A stretch of DNA of 64,000 bases from positions 64,001 to 128,000 of the IMG/VR virus record IMGVR_UViG_3300031519_006853. One strand, 5' to 3'. Within the stretch, counting starts at the first letter, position 1. Each line of letters opens with the position of its first letter. This DNA comes from a virus. The notes under the pieces are model-generated. The model was not told where the DNA came from. It worked only from the letters and a program-made list of their open reading frames with translations, and made no database searches. Made by a program: the position numbers and the translations under genes. Positions 39,994-61,293 of this stretch are shown piece by piece.

Positions 39994-41048
39994 TGAAATT
40001 ATTTTTAGCACTTTTAACCAACCACAGGGTTGATAAATTAAAAAGATTAATAAGGAGCGTACAACTCCAATACCCTGAAGAAACAATTGAAATCAATCCT
40101 GTTATTGTAGTGAATACACTTACTGATAGTTACTACCAAGAAGTATTAGAAGCTAATTTGCCATTTAAGGTAATTAGAACTGAAAGTAATGGTAAACCTG
40201 GAAAGGGTAAGAACTCATGCTTGGATCTTTTTCTAGAAAGTGATTGTGATTTCATTACACAAATCGATGGTGATGATTTCCTATACCCCACGTTTCTAAA
40301 TTCTATTGCAAACCATGTTAATCATTACCCAAATATAGATGTGCTAGGTAGAATACCCTTGGATTATATAGCAAAACATAAACCAACTGGAGGTTATACG
40401 TTTATGGCAGATGAAGAAACATATGCTTCTGTTTGGGGGATCTCTATATGCAATTTTGGAGAAAGATATCCTTCCAGAGGAAATTGGCTAGATGAAGGAT
40501 TTCCAGCTCTTGGTACAAGACTTATGCTACAAAGTAGAAAGAGTGCTGAGGTTAAGATGCATGAAGATATCGGAGTTAGAGAAGATCATGTTTATTGTAT
40601 GCAGCTCTTATCAGAACACATTAAAGGAAACCTCGGATTCTATTTAAGCACCTCAAGTGATTTTTCAATAATAGATAAAAGTTTAGAAGACAATATACAG
40701 TCTAAGTTTCAAGAAGACGATGAGTTAGTAGAGCTTTTAAGAAATAAGATGCTTTCGTATGTTTCAGAAAACCGTTCCAGTCTTACTGAGCTGCCCTTAA
40801 TATTTAAAAGTCTTTTGATTAATCAATATGAAAAAGAAGAATTTGTAAAAAATATATACCAAGTGATGAAGCTACAAACCGAAGACTACGAACAACTATT
40901 AGATAGGATTAAAGTAATAAGTAATGTAATAGATAATAATCTTCAGCAACACCCAGTTGCTAAAATACATACTAACATTAAAGACCACATATCAGCAGCC
41001 GTTGATGAATTATATAAAGCAGCAGAGATAGTTAAGAAAAACTGTTAA
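39993..41048 (+). CDS. GT-A-fold glycosyltransferase
   Basis: SNGKPGKGKNS, TQIDGDDFL. Confidence 0.65.
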   Translation: MKLFLALLTNHRVDKLKRLIRSVQLQYPEETIEINPVIVVNTLTDSYYQEVLEANLPFKVIRTESNGKPGKGKNSCLDLFLESDCDFITQIDGDDFLYPTFLNSIANHVNHYPNIDVLGRIPLDYIAKHKPTGGYTFMADEETYASVWGISICNFGERYPSRGNWLDEGFPALGTRLMLQSRKSAEVKMHEDIGVREDHVYCMQLLSEHIKGNLGFYLSTSSDFSIIDKSLEDNIQSKFQEDDELVELLRNKMLSYVSENRSSLTELPLIFKSLLINQYEKEEFVKNIYQVMKLQTEDYEQLLDRIKVISNVIDNNLQQHPVAKIHTNIKDHISAAVDELYKAAEIVKKNC

Positions 41049-41057
41049 AAACTGTTA

Positions 41058-41157
41058 AATTGTTAATAACTTTTTAAAATAACTACGAAAGTATGGCCGG
41101 AATCGCATAGAATTGATTATATTTATATTATAAATAATTAATTAAAACAAAACGGAA
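41058..41157 (+). promoter_or_regulatory. class I element, copy 2/9
   Basis: same motif. Confidence 0.75.
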
Positions 41158-41619
41158 ATGGCAACAATTACAGAACACAGATCAGAATTAGGAAACGGAT
41201 TTTCAATCACTCAACAAGTAAAAGGTAAGCAATACAAATTTCATGCTCATAACCACGGATTATGCTGGGATAAGGAATATGACTACCAAGTTATTACAAA
41301 ATGCCAAGCTGGGTTTTTTACTGTATCAACAGGAAAATCTAAACTAAGTCATATTGTTACAGGTTATAAGACAAACAAATTACATACTGTACAACTTAAA
41401 AATGATAATGGTTTTTATCTAACTGCTCTTGCAATAAAAGGTGGTAAATTCTATTTAATAGATAAAGAAATCCTAGAATGTTTAACAGTAGGAGATATTC
41501 ATTCTAACTTTCCTGCAATGGCTGATCATAATCATTGGAAAAACATCGGTTCTAAAACATGGGCAGATCCAGCATACGGAATGTTAGTTAACTCCACAGT
41601 GGAATTTCAAAATTGTTAA
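41158..41619 (+). CDS. hypothetical protein (early module)
   Basis: follows the repeated promoter element. Confidence 0.65.
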   Translation: MATITEHRSELGNGFSITQQVKGKQYKFHAHNHGLCWDKEYDYQVITKCQAGFFTVSTGKSKLSHIVTGYKTNKLHTVQLKNDNGFYLTALAIKGGKFYLIDKEILECLTVGDIHSNFPAMADHNHWKNIGSKTWADPAYGMLVNSTVEFQNC

Positions 41620-41713
41620 TAACTTTTTAAAAATAACTGTCTAAGTATGGCCAGAATCGCATAGAAATGATTATATTTATATTAATAATAACAATAACAA
41701 AAACGGAAACATT
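41611..41713 (+). promoter_or_regulatory. class I element, copy 3/9
   Basis: same motif. Confidence 0.75.
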
Positions 41714-42064
41714 ATGAACAACGCATTTGAAACTAAAGCAAATTACAAGGAGTCAGTAACAGTATTAAGAACTCAGATTAAATCTCTGAAAAGTTTGGTT
41801 AAATGTTGCAAAGAAGAACGTGCAACTATCAAACCTATTATAGATGAAAAGGTAAATATGCTGAAGTACATATCAGGTTTGAAATCATGGAACTTTAATT
41901 TTGAAGGTGGTGGTTGGAATTCTAATGTTGCTAAGACCAAAGAAGAATCAATTAAGAAGGCAAAGAAAATGTATAATGCAAGTAAACATACTCAGGTTTC
42001 TGAAACTAGTTTCCGAGTTGCTACTGATGCTGATACAAAAAACTTATTATCGTTATTTTACTAA
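41714..42064 (+). CDS. hypothetical protein (early module)
   Basis: follows the repeated promoter element. Confidence 0.65.
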   Translation: MNNAFETKANYKESVTVLRTQIKSLKSLVKCCKEERATIKPIIDEKVNMLKYISGLKSWNFNFEGGGWNSNVAKTKEESIKKAKKMYNASKHTQVSETSFRVATDADTKNLLSLFY

Positions 42065-42157
42065 TTGTTAATAACTTTTTGAAAATAACAAGAATTTATA
42101 GTTCAGAATCACAAAAAAAGTATTATATTTATACTATAATTAAAAAACGGAAATAAT
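42063..42157 (+). promoter_or_regulatory. class I element, copy 4/9
   Basis: same motif. Confidence 0.75.
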
Positions 42158-43036
42158 ATGAAAAAAGTTCAAAAAATCAAATCAAGGCTAACTCAGATTA
42201 GCAATGTCAAATATGAGAAAGGTTTATTCGAGGCTCATAAAACAAATACACCATTAGACGGATTATTTAGTATTGATGGCGGAGTTCCAAAAGCAACTAA
42301 CTGGATGGTAGTTGGAGATCCTGGTGTTGGTAAATCTACTGTAACACTAGATATTATTGCAAATGCAAAAAAGACTGGATCTAAAGTACTATTCATCTCA
42401 GCTGAAATGAACCAGGTGGATCTTTACCTTTATGTTAAAAGGTATCCTAAGTTCGGAGAATTAGATATATTCTTTCCACAAGAAATAGAAGACAATGAGG
42501 ATCCGAAACAAGTATTAGAAGAAATACTAAATGAAGGCTATGATATAGTTTTAATAGATTCATTTGTTGAACTACAAGAAACAATCCGAGAATCAGGCAG
42601 AATGACCAGAAACAGTTCAGAAAAATACTTATTGGATTTAATGTACAAACAAAACCTAGGAGCTAATAAAGCTAAATGCTTTACATCATTCCTTAATATA
42701 CAACAAGTAAATAAAGGTGGAACATTTGTAGGATCCAACAAACTGAAACATATGACTACTGGTATGATGGAGATAAGGTTCGTAGATGAAAGGGATCAGG
42801 AGGAAAGGTATGTTACCTTTAGTAAAAACCGTCGCGGTCATGTCGGGAAGCAAATGTACTTCGATCTCTCTGCTAGTGGTAATGTAACATATGATACTGA
42901 AAGGTTCAAGAAAGCTGAAGGATTAAAACAATTAAAGAAAGCTGAAAAAGAAAAAATCAAAAAATCAGGTTTACAATTCGATGCTCTATTCGGATTAGAT
43001 AAAGATCAAGAAGAAGGTGAAACAACGAATAAATAA
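42158..43036 (+). CDS. RecA-superfamily ATPase (RadA/Sms/KaiC-like)
   Basis: GDPGVGKS, FISAE, VLIDS, LKHM, KNRRG. Confidence 0.85.
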   Translation: MKKVQKIKSRLTQISNVKYEKGLFEAHKTNTPLDGLFSIDGGVPKATNWMVVGDPGVGKSTVTLDIIANAKKTGSKVLFISAEMNQVDLYLYVKRYPKFGELDIFFPQEIEDNEDPKQVLEEILNEGYDIVLIDSFVELQETIRESGRMTRNSSEKYLLDLMYKQNLGANKAKCFTSFLNIQQVNKGGTFVGSNKLKHMTTGMMEIRFVDERDQEERYVTFSKNRRGHVGKQMYFDLSASGNVTYDTERFKKAEGLKQLKKAEKEKIKKSGLQFDALFGLDKDQEEGETTNK

Positions 43037-43149
43037 ATTGTTAATAACTTTAGAAAAATAACTTATATTTATAGTTCAGAAACAGTAAAAATTGATTATA
43101 TTTATACTATATTAATTAAACAAATAACAAAAACAAAAAAGTAAAAATT
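43036..43149 (+). promoter_or_regulatory. class I element, copy 5/9
   Basis: same motif. Confidence 0.75.
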
Positions 43150-44307
43150 ATGAAAGAATTAACTACATTATCGCCAACTGCATTCGCCGCCCGTAAAGCC
43201 GAAGCTGTTAGGAACGAAGTAATGAGAAAAGAAATCAGTTTATCTGAGTTCAATGTAATCGACAATACTCATATCGAGGTTGACGGAGTAAAAATAGAAT
43301 TAACACCATTTGCCTTCAAAAGGTTATTAGGTAGGTTAAGAATACCAACGGCATTTGCTAAAAGGTTCGAAACAGGATTTGGTTCTGATGGACTACAACA
43401 ATTAGTACAGATGATGAAAACTATGAAATCATCTAAGAATGATCAAACTGTAACTCTATTGGTTGATCCAAGAGCAAAGAAAGTTACTAACATATTACCT
43501 GCAGGTTATGCAAGTATTAGTAATGAAGCATTCATTGATTTTGCTGAAGGGTATATCAATCAATACGGATTAGAGGTTAAGGACTTCGGTTCAGATCCAA
43601 ACGGTGGAGCTACAATTAACTGTGTATCTCCTAACTCTGTCTTTTCTGTTCCAGGAATGTCGGATGAAGTATTTAATACTGGTGTAACATTCAGAAATAC
43701 CCCAACCAGAGGATTAGAAGTATCGCCTTATCTAAACCGATTAGTTTGCTCAAATGGTATGTCATCAACATCATTCTCTGAAACATACGGTTTACATGAA
43801 CTAACTGATAAATCAATTAGAGAATTTAATGATCATATGATTAACATGGCATCTACAGGATTTCAACCTGTAGGATTAGCTGACAAAATTAAAATGGCAA
43901 ATAACACTGATGCATCAATTGCTGAAGTACAACGCGCAATGTCCGCTATGTTATCAACTGATAAAAAAATTGATTTTGATTACATGCAAAGGTACTTACC
44001 AATTAACCGAGTTATGAAAGCATACTCTGATATTGGAGCTGAACCATCTACCTTTACTACAAAGCAATTACAAAATGCTAAATCAGGTTTATCAATCTGG
44101 GAAGTAGTAAACGGTATAACAAACTTTGCATCCAATGATGAAAAATACAATATAGATGATCACAAAACTGGTAATCTAATGGTATCAGCTGGAAACCTTT
44201 TAATGAAAAAGAATTTTGATACTGAAGCTCTGATTCAATTTGATCCATTTGCAAATAAGCAATTGCTAAATGAAAATGAATCTGCTCGCCTAATGGGACA
44301 AGCATAA
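43150..44307 (+). CDS. DUF932-like protein
   Basis: LNRLVCSNGM motif. Confidence 0.55.
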   Translation: MKELTTLSPTAFAARKAEAVRNEVMRKEISLSEFNVIDNTHIEVDGVKIELTPFAFKRLLGRLRIPTAFAKRFETGFGSDGLQQLVQMMKTMKSSKNDQTVTLLVDPRAKKVTNILPAGYASISNEAFIDFAEGYINQYGLEVKDFGSDPNGGATINCVSPNSVFSVPGMSDEVFNTGVTFRNTPTRGLEVSPYLNRLVCSNGMSSTSFSETYGLHELTDKSIREFNDHMINMASTGFQPVGLADKIKMANNTDASIAEVQRAMSAMLSTDKKIDFDYMQRYLPINRVMKAYSDIGAEPSTFTTKQLQNAKSGLSIWEVVNGITNFASNDEKYNIDDHKTGNLMVSAGNLLMKKNFDTEALIQFDPFANKQLLNENESARLMGQA

Positions 44308-45425: not shown

Positions 45426-45843
45426 ATCTGTATATACCTCTGAGCAATCGCGTATACTAGTAATACCATAATATCGGGTAGTATCTCATATTCCTTTCAG
45501 TACTATCAGTTAATCCGTTCCGGGAGTCCGATACGCTGAAACTGGCTCATGACTTACAGTTCCAGAGTACTGTGATATATACTAGCTTAAATGGTCCTTT
45601 TCTGTACTCCTGTGATAACCTTTTATCTACTCTAAGTACTCTCATTAACTGTAAGTACACTCAAACGGCCTTTCCAGTGGTCAATGTCTAGTTGAGAAAT
45701 CCAAATCATTCGGCACATGCTAACACCTGACCTAGGCCTCCAGAATCCTACCGAGCTGAATCTGTACTCTGAAGAATCACCAAGATGTACTCATATAGCT
45801 ATAATACTGTACTTAGACAGGAAATACCCTGGTTGAGCGAAGC
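45426..45843. other. non-coding island rich in GTAC
   Basis: 8 GTAC between 45500 and 45812; no ORF >=60 aa across 45470-45784. Confidence 0.6.
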
Positions 45844-45940
45844 AATTGTTAATAACTTTTTGAAAATAACTGCCTGGTTATGGCTACAATCGCATAGAAT
45901 TGATTATATTTATATTATAATAATTAAAACAAACGGAAAT
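45844..45940 (+). promoter_or_regulatory. class I element, copy 6/9
   Basis: same motif. Confidence 0.75.
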
Positions 45941-46333
45941 ATGAAAATTCAAAATTTTGCAAAAGGTAATCTACAAACCCTTAGAGTAGACATGGACAAA
46001 GCACTACAATCAGTTGCTAAGAAATACGGTATTACAATCCACGCTGGTAACGCTAGCTTCAGTGGTAACGAATGTACCTTCAAAGTTAAATGCAATACAG
46101 TAGGATCTGATGGTACTGCTATTACTAGGGAAGCTACTAACTGGGATCGCTATAAAGGACTCCACGGTATGGATCATCTAAATGTTGGTGATACTATTAC
46201 TATCCAAGGTTCTCCTTATATACTAACAGGATTTAATAGTAGAGCAAGAAAGGCTCCTATTAATTTTAAGAACTCAGCAGGCTCTGGTTATAAATGTTCA
46301 GTAAGAATGTTACTAATGGAAAACTCTAAATAA
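45941..46333 (+). CDS. hypothetical protein (early module)
   Basis: start MKIQNF follows the repeated element. Confidence 0.65.
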   Translation: MKIQNFAKGNLQTLRVDMDKALQSVAKKYGITIHAGNASFSGNECTFKVKCNTVGSDGTAITREATNWDRYKGLHGMDHLNVGDTITIQGSPYILTGFNSRARKAPINFKNSAGSGYKCSVRMLLMENSK

Positions 46334-46334
46334 T

Positions 46335-46592
46335 ATGGCAATGAATCTACAGTATATTTCGGAAGAATCGGTACAACAATTTATAGATGGAATGGATGAG
46401 GTTACAACTGAATCTCTTCTAGAAGATCCAGGAGTTGAGGAACTACTAACTGGCTCTGTACCTCCACAAATACAGGAGCACGATAATCCTCTTGGTACTA
46501 TAGAATCCTTTCTACAACTTTTTATAGATCGTGAGGAATATGAGATTTGTGCTAAACTGGTCGAGGTACATCCAGAGCTATGCAAAAACTAG
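46335..46592 (+). CDS. small acidic protein with UVR-like motif
   Basis: FIDREEYEICAKL. Confidence 0.55.
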   Translation: MAMNLQYISEESVQQFIDGMDEVTTESLLEDPGVEELLTGSVPPQIQEHDNPLGTIESFLQLFIDREEYEICAKLVEVHPELCKN

Positions 46593-47310
46593 GCAAAATA
46601 TGATGTAAAAACACTCCTTTTTAGGGTGCTAATACCAGGTCTTCTAGACAGCCGCTCTAGAGGGCCTATATTAGTGTGTTATTTGGGCACTATTTGGGCA
46701 TATATAGCCTATATAGAGCGTCCAGTATCGTCAACTATCGTCTAGACCGCCCTATATACACCCTCTAGAGCACTAATATAGCCTATATGGCACCCTATTG
46801 TCCGCTCGAGTCAGCTACATGCCGCTAGTATCGTCATATATAGGTATATAGGGTCCATAGACTGCTATAGCCGCTAACCTCACGCCACAGACCAAAATAG
46901 CCTGCTACGACCACCACAGCACTAAAACAACTACTAAATCATCAATAACCCTAGTACGGTCTAGACAGGCTATAGGGCTCGCTGGACCACCCTAGCAAGC
47001 AACTACCATAGTATAGCAACAAGACAAGCAACTAGCTATATAGTAGACTAGTGGTAGTGGTAGCCATGTGGTAGTGGTCAACCAGGCAATGGTAGCAAGA
47101 GAGCAATAAAGTGAATCTTTCTCTTAAGGTGTATTTTTCTCTTGGGAATCTAGAGGTCTACTGGGCGCATGACTTTTACTAGTCCAGAAATTTCCAGCCA
47201 GAAAAAAGAGCTAGTCCAGATATGTGAACCGATTGCTATGTCTATTCGGATCATTTCTAGTCTGGAAAAAATTGGGCCCGAAAAAAATATGACTAAATAA
47301 ACTCTTACTA
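46593..47310. repeat. GC-richer non-coding island with palindromes and nested inverted repeats
   Basis: 6 TCTAGA, about 15 CTAG, CCCTATATAC/GTATATAGGG, ACTACCA/TGGTAGT, CTAGTC[CT][AG]GA x3. Confidence 0.75.
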
Positions 47311-47314
47311 CACT

Positions 47315-47344
47315 TTCAGTTACCTACAGGACTTGTTATAATTA
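47315..47344 (+). promoter_or_regulatory. class I core only
   Basis: TTCAGT-N15-TTATAATTA. Confidence 0.55.
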
Positions 47345-47370
47345 TATTAAACAATAACTAATAAAAGACT

Positions 47371-47529
47371 ATGTACGAAGCACTCACTCAAAACTCAACT
47401 GACTTAACAAGTATCTCTCATACCCTCGAAGCTATCAGTCTATCGTTGCAACTCCTAGTATACATGGGGATCTGTATTACGGTAGTATACACTGGTAACA
47501 AAATTAATAATTGGACTAAGAAGGCATAA
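47371..47529 (+). CDS. small membrane protein (not in ORF track)
   Basis: MYEALTQN..., follows a core promoter motif. Confidence 0.4.
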   Translation: MYEALTQNSTDLTSISHTLEAISLSLQLLVYMGICITVVYTGNKINNWTKKA

Positions 47530-47531
47530 GC

Positions 47532-47915
47532 ATGAAACTATTATACTGTAATACCTGCAGGGACATCGTGAAACTATCAAGAACTACCAGAACTTGCCAA
47601 TGCGGCGCGACTGGTGGACACTATAAGGAAGACGGATTAAACGCGATCTATTACGGTCCTGCTATTCCATTAGGTTTCGCTAACTCTAGTTTCCGTGATG
47701 CTCGAGATAATCAACCTGAGTTTGGTATGGGTACTGTCTACAACGCATTTGTTATTCCGAAGGTCTGTCCGACTATGGAACATGTAGATCTATTAGATTA
47801 TACAGAAGTTTTTGATATTGAGGAAGATGAGTACAGTGTTGATATTATGATGGCAAGAGCTGAGGATGAAAGAAAACAACGTAAACTTAGAAATGTATTT
47901 AAAGATGAAGACTAA
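47532..47915 (+). CDS. zinc-ribbon protein
   Basis: YCNTC...TCQCG. Confidence 0.65.
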   Translation: MKLLYCNTCRDIVKLSRTTRTCQCGATGGHYKEDGLNAIYYGPAIPLGFANSSFRDARDNQPEFGMGTVYNAFVIPKVCPTMEHVDLLDYTEVFDIEEDEYSVDIMMARAEDERKQRKLRNVFKDED

Positions 47916-48126
47916 AGTAATTAAATTTTGTGAAGGTTGCTTATACGGCGTAGGATATGGATTTATGATTGCAATGGGACTACTGATTATTTGTAGTATC
48001 TCATTTGCTTTCTATAATTTGTTCTTAGAGCTGTTTAGTTAACTATGTGCTTTCAGAGTATAAAATGTGCGACAGATGTGCGACCGCCCTATAAAGAATG
48101 CAAGTATTAATAATAAATATAGAAAT

Positions 48127-48303
48127 ATGAATAAATGGAATAAGATAAAAAAAGAAGGCTGGCTAGCTTGTATGTTAGTGGGCATCTCTTTATTGACATG
48201 GGCAATTAGCCAAGGGGAATGTTTTACTGGACATATACCTTTAGCATGTTTACTCCTCATCTTTGGGGTGGCGGCAGAAACTTCTAATACTAAAGGAGAA
48301 TGA
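48127..48303 (+). CDS. small membrane protein
   Basis: hydrophobic; start moved to MNKW. Confidence 0.4.
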   Translation: MNKWNKIKKEGWLACMLVGISLLTWAISQGECFTGHIPLACLLLIFGVAAETSNTKGE

Positions 48304-48469
48304 ATAATACACTAACTGAAATAGAACAAATAGAACAAGTACTAACTGAAGCACATGCATATAATCTTAGATCTGAGGTTAAGGCAACAGCTGAGGCATT
48401 TATATTAGATGATCAACATTTAAGTAAAATCGCAGCTTACAACATGGCTTATATACAATGGGTGGAATA

Positions 48470-48661
48470 ATGGCAACAATTAATATAATAGCAATTTACT
48501 TATTATGCGGAGTTATATTTTCTGCAGGTTTTGAATACTTAATGAAAAGGATGGGTACTCCTGACCGAGAAAACACTACAAATTACCAGAGAGTTGTTTG
48601 GATTACTATATGGCCTTATTGTATATTCAAATTTTTCATGGGATATACAGGAAATGATTAA
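48470..48661 (+). CDS. small membrane protein
   Basis: hydrophobic; WITIWP. Confidence 0.5.
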   Translation: MATINIIAIYLLCGVIFSAGFEYLMKRMGTPDRENTTNYQRVVWITIWPYCIFKFFMGYTGND

Positions 48662-50005: not shown

Positions 50006-50082
50006 CGGGATGTATCTCCTCAAGCTTATACCTTGTAGAAAGAGTAATTGGTTACATATAGGTTCAAGTCCTGTCTTCCCGA
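50006..50082 (+). ncRNA. non-canonical tRNA-Ile(UAU)-like RNA lacking a D-arm in the normal position
   Basis: CGGGATG/CTTCCCG, CAAG-CTTATAC-CTTG, GTAA-TTGG-TTAC hairpin, ATAGG-TTCAAGT-CCTGT. Confidence 0.65.
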
Positions 50083-50119
50083 CCTTAACCTTATAAATAT
50101 AAAAATAAAAAACTTAAAT

Positions 50120-50311
50120 ATGCTAATAATCAAAAAAGGAGAAAAGGAATCAATCGACAAAGTATTAAAAAAATACAAAAGAAAGGTTAGAGAAACAAGA
50201 CTCCTACAAGATATTAGAGAAAGAAAAGAATTTGCAAAACCTTCCACAAAGAAAAGAAAGCAAAAATTAAAAGCAATATACCAGCAAAAATTAAGAAATG
50301 AAAGCAAATGA
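50120..50311 (+). CDS. rpsU: 30S ribosomal protein S21
   Basis: MLIIKKGEKESIDKVLKKYKRK..RERKEFAKPSTKKR. Confidence 0.9.
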   Translation: MLIIKKGEKESIDKVLKKYKRKVRETRLLQDIRERKEFAKPSTKKRKQKLKAIYQQKLRNESK

Positions 50312-50645
50312 TTTATGTTTAGATTGTGGCTTATGTTGTAATGGTACATTATGGCTAGGTGTATATGTTGAAGAATCAAAACATCATTTATTTAAAAATA
50401 TTGTAAAGAAAAAAATTAACTTTGGTCTTGCTAAGCAAGGTGGAGACGGTTGTGAACAATTAGATAATTGCAATTTATGTAAGATTTATGAAAACCGACC
50501 ATCTAACTGTAGAGAATATGAATGCGGTGTCTTAAATGAAGTCAAAAGAAATGATATATCCTTTGCATATGCAGAATTACTAATTAAAGATCTTAAGAAA
50601 AACCCACATGATGAAGAATTAATCAATCGGTTTAAAAATTGTTAA
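50298..50645 (+). CDS. YkgJ-like Fe-S/Zn cluster protein
   Basis: CLDCGLCC..C..CKIYENRPSNCREYEC. Confidence 0.85.
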   Translation: MKANDLCLDCGLCCNGTLWLGVYVEESKHHLFKNIVKKKINFGLAKQGGDGCEQLDNCNLCKIYENRPSNCREYECGVLNEVKRNDISFAYAELLIKDLKKNPHDEELINRFKNC

Positions 50646-50735
50646 TAACTTTTTGAAAATAACGTGAATTTATAGTTCAGAATCCCATTTAATTGATTAT
50701 ATTTATATTATAATAATTAAAACAAAAACGGAACT
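50637..50735 (+). promoter_or_regulatory. class I element, copy 7/9
   Basis: same motif. Confidence 0.75.
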
Positions 50736-51143
50736 ATGGCAACATTAAGAATTACAACTCAGTACTACGAAAATTACTCGGACTCTCAAACTCCACACTG
50801 GAAACCAAAAGGTGGACAAACATTTATCATCAAAGATATTGAAGGTGATATGATTATGTACTGTGATAATCTAACAGAGGTTTGTAAAAACCTTGTATCT
50901 GCAAAATCAAATGAGCATTTCAAATATGATTATAGAGATCATGAAGTTGACTTTATAGGCGATGAGGAAATCTCTGTAACCGAACTTACTAAAGAAATAA
51001 GAGATCAATTTAACGGTGATGGTAAATATGCACCGAAGGACATTCCTGGATTTGAAGGTACCTTAGATAAATTAAATGATATCACTATAATGTGTTCGGC
51101 TGACTTAGATAATGAAATGGCTAACGAATCAGAAAACATATAA
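50736..51143 (+). CDS. hypothetical protein (early module)
   Basis: follows the repeated element. Confidence 0.65.
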   Translation: MATLRITTQYYENYSDSQTPHWKPKGGQTFIIKDIEGDMIMYCDNLTEVCKNLVSAKSNEHFKYDYRDHEVDFIGDEEISVTELTKEIRDQFNGDGKYAPKDIPGFEGTLDKLNDITIMCSADLDNEMANESENI

Positions 51144-53473: not shown

Positions 53474-53812
53474 ATGAAAATATTACAAAAGATAGCATGG
53501 TTAACCAGAAGGTGGAATTTATCAATAAGACTATTTGACTTACAATTACATGATGGACATAACTCTTGGGGTTTTCATCTGTTAGCAATTAGACATAATC
53601 ATTCAGTATATTCATTATTAGCATTTGAATGCAGATTACCTAACGGTGGAGACATAAAGGTATTTGCAGTAGATCATGTAGATATATTATTCTTAAGACA
53701 AGTTCTTAACGACTGGGCTTGTGATTTAGAAGAAGATAATATGTGGGCTGGTAGAACTCCTACAAGGTTAGAGAAAATAGGAATAGCTTTAGTTGGTACA
53801 ATCTTTAAATAA
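53474..53812 (+). CDS. hypothetical protein
   Basis: ORF. Confidence 0.55.
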   Translation: MKILQKIAWLTRRWNLSIRLFDLQLHDGHNSWGFHLLAIRHNHSVYSLLAFECRLPNGGDIKVFAVDHVDILFLRQVLNDWACDLEEDNMWAGRTPTRLEKIGIALVGTIFK

Positions 53813-53907
53813 ATTGTTAATAACTTTTAAAAATAATTAGAGAAGTATGGCTACAATCGCGAAAAATTGATTATATTTATACTATATTAATAATTAAAAA
53901 ATAAAAC
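53812..53907 (+). promoter_or_regulatory. class I element, copy 8/9
   Basis: same motif. Confidence 0.75.
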
Positions 53908-54213
53908 ATGAGCAAGTACCAAGAACTATTACAAAACCCACCAACATTCACTGAACTTTATGATAGTGAAAATTTAAGAGAAGTTATTTTTGAACTAATT
54001 AGCTGTATGTGTGATAACAAATATACATTCAAATTAAAAAAGAATTCCGAAGGTGATTTTAAATTACATACATGCGGGTTTGCATTTAGCAATTTTTCAA
54101 TCAAAAACCCTATGCATGATATTGAATGGGAAGCTGATGATAACAATTGGGGAACTGTTGTAAATATGATCAATACCGGTACATCAAAAATTAATACTGT
54201 TAAGTGTAGATAA
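53908..54213 (+). CDS. hypothetical protein (early module)
   Basis: follows the repeated element. Confidence 0.6.
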   Translation: MSKYQELLQNPPTFTELYDSENLREVIFELISCMCDNKYTFKLKKNSEGDFKLHTCGFAFSNFSIKNPMHDIEWEADDNNWGTVVNMINTGTSKINTVKCR

Positions 54214-59808: not shown

Positions 59809-59881
59809 TGTCCTATGGTGTAACTGGCAACACGTCTGTTTTTGGTACAGAAGAGTCGAGGTTCGAGCCCTTGTGGGACAA
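59809..59881 (+). tRNA. tRNA-Gln(UUG)
   Basis: TGTCCTA/TGGGACA, TCTGT-TTTTGGT-ACAGA, GGTTCGAGCCC. Confidence 0.93.
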
Positions 59882-59894
59882 CTATTTGTTTTAA

Positions 59895-59991
59895 AATTGT
59901 TAATAACTTTTTGAAAATAACGTGAATTTATAGTTCAGAACCGAGAAAATTGTATTATATTTATATTATAATAAATTAAACAAAACGGAAT
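59895..59991 (+). promoter_or_regulatory. class I element, copy 9/9
   Basis: same motif. Confidence 0.75.
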
Positions 59992-61293
59992 ATGACTGAA
60001 CTAACAAAAAACCTAAATTATCTACAATCATTTATTGATGAAATGAATGATTCATCTTCGGGTAATTACAAAATTGAAACTATTAAGAAACACTCTGATA
60101 GTAAATTTCTACAAATGATTTTTAATTATACTTATAATCCTTATAAGAAATATAATGTAACTTCAAAAAATTGTAAAAAGAATTTTGATTTACTTGGCCA
60201 TGCAAATACTTATGGTAGTATCTTTACTATATTAAATGATTTAGCAAACAGAGTTTCTACTGGGCATACTTCAATTGCAAATGTTAACAGATTTATCTTA
60301 GAAAATAAACAACATGAAACTCTTATTTATAATATTATTGATAGAGACCTTAAAATGGGTGCATCTACCAGTTCTATTAACAAAGTAATTCCAGGATGTA
60401 TACCAACATTCAAGGTTGCATTAGCAAATCCTTATAATGTAAAAAGAGTAGATTTCAAAAGTGGAGACTGGTACGGTTCTAGAAAATTAGATGGAGTTCG
60501 TTGTATTTGCCGAAAAGAAAATGATATAGTAACATTCTTTTCTAGGAGTGGTAAAGAATTTTTAACATTAGGTAATTTAGAAAATGAAATTCTAAAGATT
60601 CCAGGTAACTTTATTTTAGATGGAGAAATCTGTATGGTTGATAAAGATGGCAATGAAGATTTTCAAGGAATCATGAAACAGATTAGAAAAAAGGATCATC
60701 AAATTGAAAAACCTAAATTCTTTGTATTTGATTATTTAACCTTAGAACAATTTGATAATCAAACTGGAACTACACCATTAACATTAAGATTAAGAAATGG
60801 TTATCATAACTTACCAAATGATGTTAACTATGATATGTTAGAATTCTTACCACAAGAACAATTAACTACCGAAGAACAATTTACTGAAATGGCAAAGGCT
60901 GCTGAAGATGCAGGATTTGAAGGAATCATGGTTAGAAAGAATGTAGGCTATGAAGGTAAAAGAAGCCATAATCTACTAAAGGTTAAAAAATTCCATGATG
61001 CAGAATATACCGTCTTAGGAACTACCAATGCATTTATCCGATGGACAGAAAATGGTAAACAAGTAGAAAGAGAATGTTTAAGTAACATTACAATTGAACA
61101 TAAAGGTTGTAAAGTAAATGTAGGATCAGGATTTTCTAAAGAACAAAGAGAAATGTACTTTGATTTTCCACAGAATATTATAGGTAAGACTGTAACAATT
61201 CAATACTTTGAGGAAACTAAAAATCAAAACGGAGGATTCAGTTTAAGGTTTCCTGTATTAAAACATGTTTATACCAATGGCAGAGATTGCTAA
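59992..61293 (+). CDS. ATP-dependent DNA ligase
   Basis: RKLDGVRC (motif I), LDGEI, EGIMVR, LLKVK, LRFP. Confidence 0.95.
   Translation: MTELTKNLNYLQSFIDEMNDSSSGNYKIETIKKHSDSKFLQMIFNYTYNPYKKYNVTSKNCKKNFDLLGHANTYGSIFTILNDLANRVSTGHTSIANVNRFILENKQHETLIYNIIDRDLKMGASTSSINKVIPGCIPTFKVALANPYNVKRVDFKSGDWYGSRKLDGVRCICRKENDIVTFFSRSGKEFLTLGNLENEILKIPGNFILDGEICMVDKDGNEDFQGIMKQIRKKDHQIEKPKFFVFDYLTLEQFDNQTGTTPLTLRLRNGYHNLPNDVNYDMLEFLPQEQLTTEEQFTEMAKAAEDAGFEGIMVRKNVGYEGKRSHNLLKVKKFHDAEYTVLGTTNAFIRWTENGKQVERECLSNITIEHKGCKVNVGSGFSKEQREMYFDFPQNIIGKTVTIQYFEETKNQNGGFSLRFPVLKHVYTNGRDC

Follow-up and report, generated by a model that had tools for sequence, protein, structure and literature searches.

The window, a stretch of 64,000 nucleotides, comprises bases 64001-128000 of one linear virus record of 181,663 bp (IMG/VR, marine giant phage; CheckV 65% complete). 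It contains a gene-free island of ~780 bp (window 46593-47370), bounded on one side by the stop codon ending an 85-aa ORF (46335-46592) and on the other by the ATG at 47371 that opens a 52-aa ORF. The island is situated between transcription units; a terminator-like hairpin is found 5' of it in relatives, and a conserved promoter 3' of it. Its neighbourhood comprises genes for thymidylate synthase, sugar-modifying enzymes and a RecA/RadA-like ATPase, small genes without assigned function and tRNAs, and furthermore genes for a PspC-like protein, bS21, a PNKP-type phosphatase and DNA ligase. The ribosomal protein S21 match is located at window 50048-50311 (Pfam E = 2.3e-10).

The major capsid protein of this phage is a T4-type gp23. 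Its nearest deposited relatives are those of an uncultured 462-kb phage (50.6% identity) and of the Lak phages of Prevotella (36-40%), and capsid identity to Tenacibaculum phages is about 30%. Nearly all genes are encoded on the + strand, and the cumulative GC skew consequently climbs monotonically over 181 kb. A gene for a C5 cytosine DNA methyltransferase is present outside the window, at genome 2472-3380 (G000, L264; Pfam DNA_methylase, E = 1.5e-19), and a genome search for HU and for N6/N4 or Dam-type methyltransferases did not find any.

The GC content of the island is 41-46% vs 31% genome-wide, and the sharp shift in composition described in a first-pass annotation of this DNA is borne out (GC 0.44-0.46 vs 0.31 in the genome). 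That annotation also described the stretch as devoid of ORFs, which agrees with internal frames of 30-43 aa at most. It let the island extend over 46593-47310; this stretch is indeed non-coding, the true end being located 60 nt further, at 47370. CTAG occurs 14 times in 46593-47310, i.e. 19.5 per kb vs 2.15 per kb genome-wide, and the ~15 copies originally announced are reached in the richest 718-bp window (15 copies). All of the top 20 CTAG windows of the genome (20/20) overlap or adjoin the island, the strongest CTAG hot spot of the record. TCTAGA is present six times in the island, out of 50 in the record, spanning genome coordinates 110643 to 111149, and its six previously listed positions (46643, 46656, 46741, 46764, 46960 and 47149) are all exact. 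The same applies to the other repeats listed there: TATTTGGGCA is present in two copies, CCCTATATAC and GTATATAGGG form a pair (I14), CTAGTC[CT][AG]GA occurs at 47179, 47211 and 47257 (D9), and the GACCAC/GTGGTC nest and the remaining repeats were recovered as well. According to a word search of the whole 181-kb record, TATATAGCC, TATTTGGGC, GTATTTTTCTCTT and CATGACTTTT are unique to the island, and TATCGTC and similar shorter island words have a few copies elsewhere. Coordinates of the individual features are given in Table 1.

Table 1. Features of the island and of the genes directly downstream (positions in the window)
Feature	Position	Strand	Basis
5' lead, starting behind the 85-aa ORF stop codon	46593..46649	.	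sequence
Weak hairpin in the 5' lead	CACTCC 46612-46617 with GGGTG 46624-46628		sequence
First TCTAGA, out of phase with the array	46643		sequence
Phased box array, ~22 tandem units	46650..46885	.	Fourier power, palindrome enrichment, indel lengths
CA-rich tract, A+C 76% on the + strand, G 9%	46886..46955	+	composition
Conserved middle block GGTCTAGACAGGCTATAGGGC ... CAACTAGCTATA, many TAG-ending motifs	46956..47039	.	alignment
GT-rich tract	47040..47100	+	TRF, composition
Conserved 3' block, AT-richer, 37% GC	47101..47314	+	nhmmer profile
Predicted early-type promoter core: CTTTCAG (47313), spacer, TGTTATAAT (47334-47342)	47313..47345	+	invariance
52-aa gene, putative membrane-like small protein	47371..47529	+	ORF list, related loci
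127-aa Cys-rich protein (CxxC...CxC), acidic tail	47532..47915	+	alignment A1

Two further spots of the record differ from the island. The highest-GC spot of the genome (0.49; genome 129000-129700, G000, L267) falls within an ORF longer than 900 aa; it has no Rfam match and was rejected as a second island. A gene-free stretch of ~315 bp (45470-45785, GC ~0.40) is separated from the island, on its upstream side, by two genes. The idea that it duplicates the 3' block was rejected, the 12-nt word GGCxCATGACTT being all that both have in common.

The 5' half of the island is a tandem array, in which 22 consecutive units of 8-13 nt (46656-46885; mean 10.4, sd 1.2) follow one another, each composed of an AT-rich palindromic box and a GC-rich spacer. 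Boxes are of the types TCTAGA, CTATATAG, CTATAG, CTCGAG and TATTTG; most units start with CTA or TCTAGA, and many palindromes have the form CTA(TA)nTAG. Written in rows of 10-11 nt, the AT-rich boxes of this half align vertically, as do the GC-rich spacers. The array contains 32, 12 and 5 palindromic 4-, 6- and 8-mers vs shuffle means of 14.2, 3.5 and 1.0, respectively. Fourier power of the AT/GC distribution amounts to 17.8 near 10.5 bp in a 400-bp window and to 23.1 at 10.45 bp for 46670-46850, vs a genome-wide median of 1.2, a 99th percentile of 4.1 and a best site outside the island of 7.4. The array is by a wide margin the top-scoring window of the genome for 10.45-bp AT/GC periodicity. 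On the same measure, the iterons of lambda ori reach 11.9 at 11.8 bp and the strong gyrase site of Mu reaches 5-7 at 10.05-10.4 bp.

Array periodicity is present in all relatives with enough upstream DNA (37/37), with a period of 10.4-10.7 bp and a power of 16-37. In each of them (37/37), the strongest 300-bp periodic window precedes the 3' block by 470-630 nt; the power is at most 7.5 in the rest of each locus and at most 10.4 in shuffles. The divergent group of L002, L003, L005, L007, L103 and L105 shows the periodicity too, and it persists in a group whose 3' block has no more than 53-59% identity. In the phase profile of 36 sequences, AT content ranges over one turn from 0.38 to 0.75, and within the spacer G is enriched just 5' of C. 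Palindromic 6-mers are enriched in 35 relatives (mean z = 3.9), TCTAGA and TATATA being the dominant palindromes. The indels that distinguish relatives have length peaks at 10-11, 21 and 31-32 nt, i.e. the arrays gain or lose mostly whole units. Shuffling the order of the 22 units leaves the power unchanged (17.7 +/- 4.8 vs 18.2 observed), so that a tandem repeat whose units average 10.4 nt accounts completely for the periodicity; a lattice constraint beyond the distribution of unit lengths is not evident from this shuffling. The mean unit equals the helical repeat in all relatives, which is suggestive of selection for the match, with the reservation that the arrays of the relatives share ancestry and do not represent independent replicates. 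A mean spacing of 10.4-10.5 bp implies that all boxes lie on one face of the helix.

At the position of the 5' lead, the divergent L002 group possesses a clear hairpin followed by a T-run. The order of a CA-rich and then a GT-rich tract 3' of the array is kept in relatives, which likewise have GGTAGT-type runs there; in the window, the hexamer TAGTGG has ~5 copies at 47049-47078 (TRF). Columns of the middle block that separates both tracts are conserved in most of 27 aligned relatives. The 3' block is the best-conserved part of the island and occurs as a single copy in the genome; its GC content (37%) is lower than that of the array (45%) and still above the genome mean of 31%. It contains an 18-nt tandem pair (47107-47143) including the near-invariant GTATTTTTCTCTT (47131), 3' of this pair CATGACTTTT at 47168, and four CCAGA-type direct repeats at 47179, 47192, 47211 and 47257.

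The predicted promoter at the 3' end of the island reads into the 52-aa gene and is invariant in 27-52 relatives. Its TTCAG-N15-TTATA core is shared with repeated early cassettes elsewhere in the window, of which the island's promoter carries the core only. These cassettes are near-identical, ~100 bp long (AAATTGTTAATAACTTTT ... TTATATTTATA ... AAACGGAA-ATG) and precede many genes; they are located in window 41040-43155, 50630-50740, 53810-53912 and 59880-59995. The 52-aa gene always directly follows the island in related loci, and the 52-aa and 127-aa genes form a conserved pair (loci L001-L110). No credible Pfam family was detected for the 52-aa protein, its one match being under the curated cut-off of that family, and the 127-aa protein has no match in Pfam, PHROG and NCBIfam. 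AlphaFold2 returned an unusable model of the latter (7 sequences, pLDDT 41).

With the 127-aa Cys-rich protein as an anchor, 110 related loci were collected from virome and metagenome collections, and CTAG-rich DNA is found upstream of the anchor gene in related loci as well. An nhmmer nucleotide profile built from the 3' 280 nt of the island matches ~70 loci, which yield 52 distinct full-length sequences with 53-91% identity to the window. In the 500 nt upstream of the 3' block, 38 sequences that extend far enough upstream have a GC content of 41-48% and contain 5-20 CTAG, 3-6 TCTAGA and 4-18 TATAG/CTATA, and island words recur at matching places. Subgroups differ in their upstream genes and agree in having the 52-aa and 127-aa genes downstream; in 20 relatives, tRNA genes encoded on the same strand come 1.5-2.6 kb further along. 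The island is missing from loci with remoter homologues of the 127-aa protein, which are 85-126 aa long, most of them about 90 aa. Among these, two complete genomes of the wider phage group (G001 and G002, loci L229-L263; ~340 kb, direct terminal repeats, GC 35% and 26%) possess neither a CTAG hot spot nor a strong 10.5-bp periodic site.

Judged by this pattern of sequence conservation, the island is under selection and limited to one clade. Its presence in many independent assemblies shows that it is real: the first-pass annotation had allowed for an assembly artefact and for a region not conserved in close relatives, and the same site is kept in at least 52 distinct marine sequences from metagenomes and viromes. 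No match was returned when the DNA of 46400-47500 was compared with 50,697 deposited phages, nor when deposited phages were searched with the 127-aa protein. Among viral contigs, a scan for exact 15-mers produced 113 matches, nearly all of them by chance and three of them true, and a gapped-pattern scan produced five, two of which were already known.

The island shows no sign of coding for a protein or of folding as an RNA. A 43-aa ORF (47169-47300) was rejected as a small-protein gene on account of early stops in L045, L001 and L002, and its frame is broken even in relatives up to 91% identical. Lak phages read TAG as glutamine; translation with TAG = Q, an idea derived from the kinship with Lak, yields short overlapping junk frames only, and recoded coding was likewise rejected. 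Rfam has no match in 45500-48500 at E up to 1, except for a chance snoRNA-like one outside the island; covariance models of GOLLD, ROOL, group I/II introns and tmRNA gave no match, and in 20 relatives Rfam detected tRNAs only. RNAalifold gives -9.5 kcal/mol for the whole island (27 sequences, 1174 columns), -1.3 for the middle (19 sequences, 340 columns) and a weak value of about -26 on either strand for the 3' block. As a single sequence, the whole island folds mildly better than shuffles (z = -2.1 on the + strand, -2.8 on the - strand), and z of the middle part is -2.2 as RNA and -0.5 as DNA. A DNA hairpin of the CA/GT segment was rejected (z = -0.5). The best 15-bp helix (46897-46912 with 46958-46974) is paired in 61.8% of cells vs 58.9% in shuffles. 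A hairpin around the invariant ATGTCTA takes two mutually exclusive forms in different subgroups, with few compensatory changes, all in one subgroup. Across the aligned relatives neither conserved secondary structure nor covariation was detected. The long structured RNA proposed in the first-pass annotation is not supported, given no Rfam match, almost no RNAalifold consensus and a best helix no better than shuffles.

A long, weakly structured non-coding RNA is a different matter, and in our estimate a decidedly unlikely one. Such a transcript might serve as a sponge, offering ~20 UCUAGA/CUAUAUAG motifs to an RNA-binding protein, or as a long 5' leader in which boxA-like CUCUUAA elements would bring about antitermination in the early and tRNA operon. 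A sigma-70-like TAGACA-N16-TATATT at 46645-46672 could start it, but this site is not kept in all relatives. The GC content above the surroundings, the neighbouring genes all on the + strand, the tRNAs downstream and the mildly favourable fold scores on both strands are consistent with a transcript; the compensatory changes of the ATGTCTA hairpin point in the same direction, whereas its two forms exclude one another between subgroups. Furthermore, no Rfam family is present in the window or in 20 relatives, a consensus structure is almost absent, the best helix is not conserved, and palindromic boxes at the helical repeat of DNA have no obvious rationale in RNA. GOLLD and ROOL resemble the island in length (600-800 nt), in a GC content above their surroundings, in being phage-borne and in their position a few kb from tRNA genes, but the island differs from both in having no Rfam match, conserved secondary structure or covariation.

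The island probably is a cis-acting element of double-stranded DNA, i.e. a docking site for a multimeric protein. Palindromic boxes that return with every helical turn for upwards of 20 turns argue for such a site, as do the single copy, the position between transcription units and the absence of an RNA-fold or coding signal; palindromic boxes as such fit recognition of double-stranded DNA by dimers. A putative dimeric sequence-specific protein, of phage or host origin, would fill successive boxes and polymerise on one face of the helix, thereby bending or wrapping 230-350 bp into a nucleoprotein complex. This complex would then act at the strand-asymmetric CA/GT segment and at the AT-richer 3' block with its CCAGA repeats, which ends at the promoter. 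If the element is an origin, its layout would be that of an iteron-like array, followed by a region to be opened and by a promoter. Binding of a protein, wrapping of the DNA and a role as origin are what we infer from this arrangement.

Among the roles open to such a DNA site, a replication origin is favoured because of the layout, i.e. array, AT-richer block and promoter, and of the neighbourhood of DNA metabolism genes; to the reading as a whole, DNA site and replication origin taken together, we assign about even chances. In lambda ori, four 19-bp iterons are bound by the O protein, and the origins of P1 and of iteron plasmids are akin. Helix-phased tandem repeats as in iteron origins are present in the island (22 units, power 18-23 at 10.45 bp). 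Iteron origins resemble it in tandem protein-binding repeats on one helix face (binding being presumed for the island), in a flanking region that in the island is AT-richer than the array but GC-richer than the genome mean, and in a single copy per genome, and lambda ori in addition in a periodic signal on the same measure. They consist of 4-7 units of ~20 bp, whereas the island's array has ~22 units of ~10.4 bp, which are degenerate short palindromes. Unlike in iteron origins, no recognisable initiator gene is located beside the array, no DnaA box is present and the array is GC-richer than the genome. The flanking genes match neither a DNA-binding nor an initiator family, and a search of the island for DnaA boxes with at most one mismatch found none. 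Regarding the origin suggested by the first-pass annotation, the phased palindromic array fits a protein site at the DNA level, but the expected switch in GC skew is not found at the island; over the 181 kb of the 65%-complete record the skew rises monotonically without an inflection there. The lack of the island in G001 and G002 implies that it cannot be a universal type of origin for the wider phage group.

In its length, in the strength of its phasing and in its type of box, the island is unusual among phased arrays of protein-binding repeats, and its phage clade is one known from metagenomes alone. We put forward, tentatively and with clearly less confidence than the origin, that the array may represent a new DNA-organising centre, at which at least 20 dimers form a wrapped, nucleosome- or filament-like complex serving as an origin or as a genome anchor. 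If so, the island would be without a recognisable relative among known origins, centromeres and pac sites; literature searches returned no description of an element of this kind.

Centromeres of partition systems are comparable in some respects. R1 parC consists of ten 11-bp iterons bound by ParR, tubC/tubS is bound by TubR, and centromere repeats of 10-12 bp are cooperatively coated by a small dimeric protein, resulting in a curved or ring-like complex near a promoter. Type II/III centromeres would thus resemble the island, by analogy, in long runs of ~10-12-bp repeats adjoining a promoter; the island's array is twice as long as theirs. This phage carries capsid and terminase genes of the T4 type, and nothing in it points to life as a plasmid. 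In the 65%-complete record no partner gene of a partition centromere (parC, tubC, parS) was recognised: Tubulin and ParB_N have no match; StbA_N (StbA/ParM) has no match in the record either, but as it has none in any control genome, its result is uninformative.

The main rival of the origin, and on balance an unlikely one, is a large operator or insulator (super-operator) of the early and tRNA operon. A ribbon-helix-helix-like repressor or activator would coat the boxes and the CCAGA repeats, and thereby time or shield the promoter at 47313-47345, from which the tRNA operon and the genes for the 52-aa and 127-aa proteins would be read. Downstream genes and this promoter go with the island, with varying genes upstream; the same-strand tRNAs found 1.5-2.6 kb on in 20 relatives and the position of the four CCAGA repeats, 50-160 nt upstream of the promoter, agree with such a control site. 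The TAGA-type subsites of the array, spaced by one turn, may be likened to known operators of ribbon-helix-helix proteins (ParR, omega, Arc-like proteins). The core of the array, however, ends ~430 nt upstream of the promoter, and the distance between both differs by tens of bases among relatives. A size of 780 bp would be very large for a phage operator, and no regulator gene was recognised among the flanking genes.

Very little probability is given to a strong site for a DNA-wrapping topoisomerase (host gyrase) as in Mu, which would organise the supercoiling of a large genome. Gyrase sites have a 10.5-bp AT/GC periodicity in their wrapped arms, and the Mu site, gene-free and central like the island and with 10.5-bp AT/GC phasing, has a weak signal of the kind described here. 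The Mu site comprises ~130 bp with a power of 5-7 vs 18-23 in the island and is without conserved palindromic boxes; the signal of the island is three times stronger and 2-3 times longer than one gyrase footprint, and its boxes are sequence-conserved palindromes rather than merely bendable DNA. Phasing is the only feature that wrapped gyrase sites have in common with the island.

Giant phages of marine Bacteroidota-type hosts are, to our knowledge, known almost exclusively from metagenomes, and we are aware of no cis-acting DNA signal (origin, packaging or control site) that has been mapped in any of them. The island is an unusually clear candidate for such a cis element, with 780 gene-free bp in a compact genome, dozens of relatives and a helical phasing that surpasses that of textbook origins on the same measure. 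It can be used as a bait for DNA pull-downs and as a marker for this phage clade. If a binding protein is found, it might provide a new model for proteins that coat or bend long DNA.

Apart from the candidate origin, the repeats have a bearing on where sequences of this clade end. Three long virome contigs (L006, L010 and L023) stop inside the island, and 30 of 67 metagenome contig ends are situated within 600 nt upstream of the anchor gene. Such ends might indicate a genome terminus, a packaging (pac) site or a signal at which injection pauses, with rings of the small terminase or an injection-blocking factor on the phased boxes; rings of the small terminase are presumed to touch the DNA that they wrap about once in each turn, and the spacing of the boxes would suit them by analogy. 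This explanation is very improbable in our view. The contig ends are scattered over the whole island, as fits assembly breaks at repeats, and many assemblies span it unbroken; the record is without end repeats, and the island is absent from both complete relatives that have terminal repeats. In genome coordinates, the large terminase gene (31.5 kb) and the island (110.6 kb) are 79 kb apart. This distance and the lack of a single end point speak against the packaging or terminal-repeat site that the first-pass annotation had listed among its options. Similar to the island, the injection-stop region of T5 is repeat- and palindrome-rich non-coding DNA near early genes; the phage studied here is not T5-like, its gp23-type capsid protein being nearest to those of huge uncultured, Lak and Tenacibaculum phages.

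Probably, the repeat array breaks short-read assemblies of this phage clade. Scattered ends inside the island are found in L006, L010, L020, L022, L023, L037 and L050, and further contigs ending there are L059, L062, L080, L082, L091 and L107. Some of the contigs that end inside the island are 55-84 kb long.
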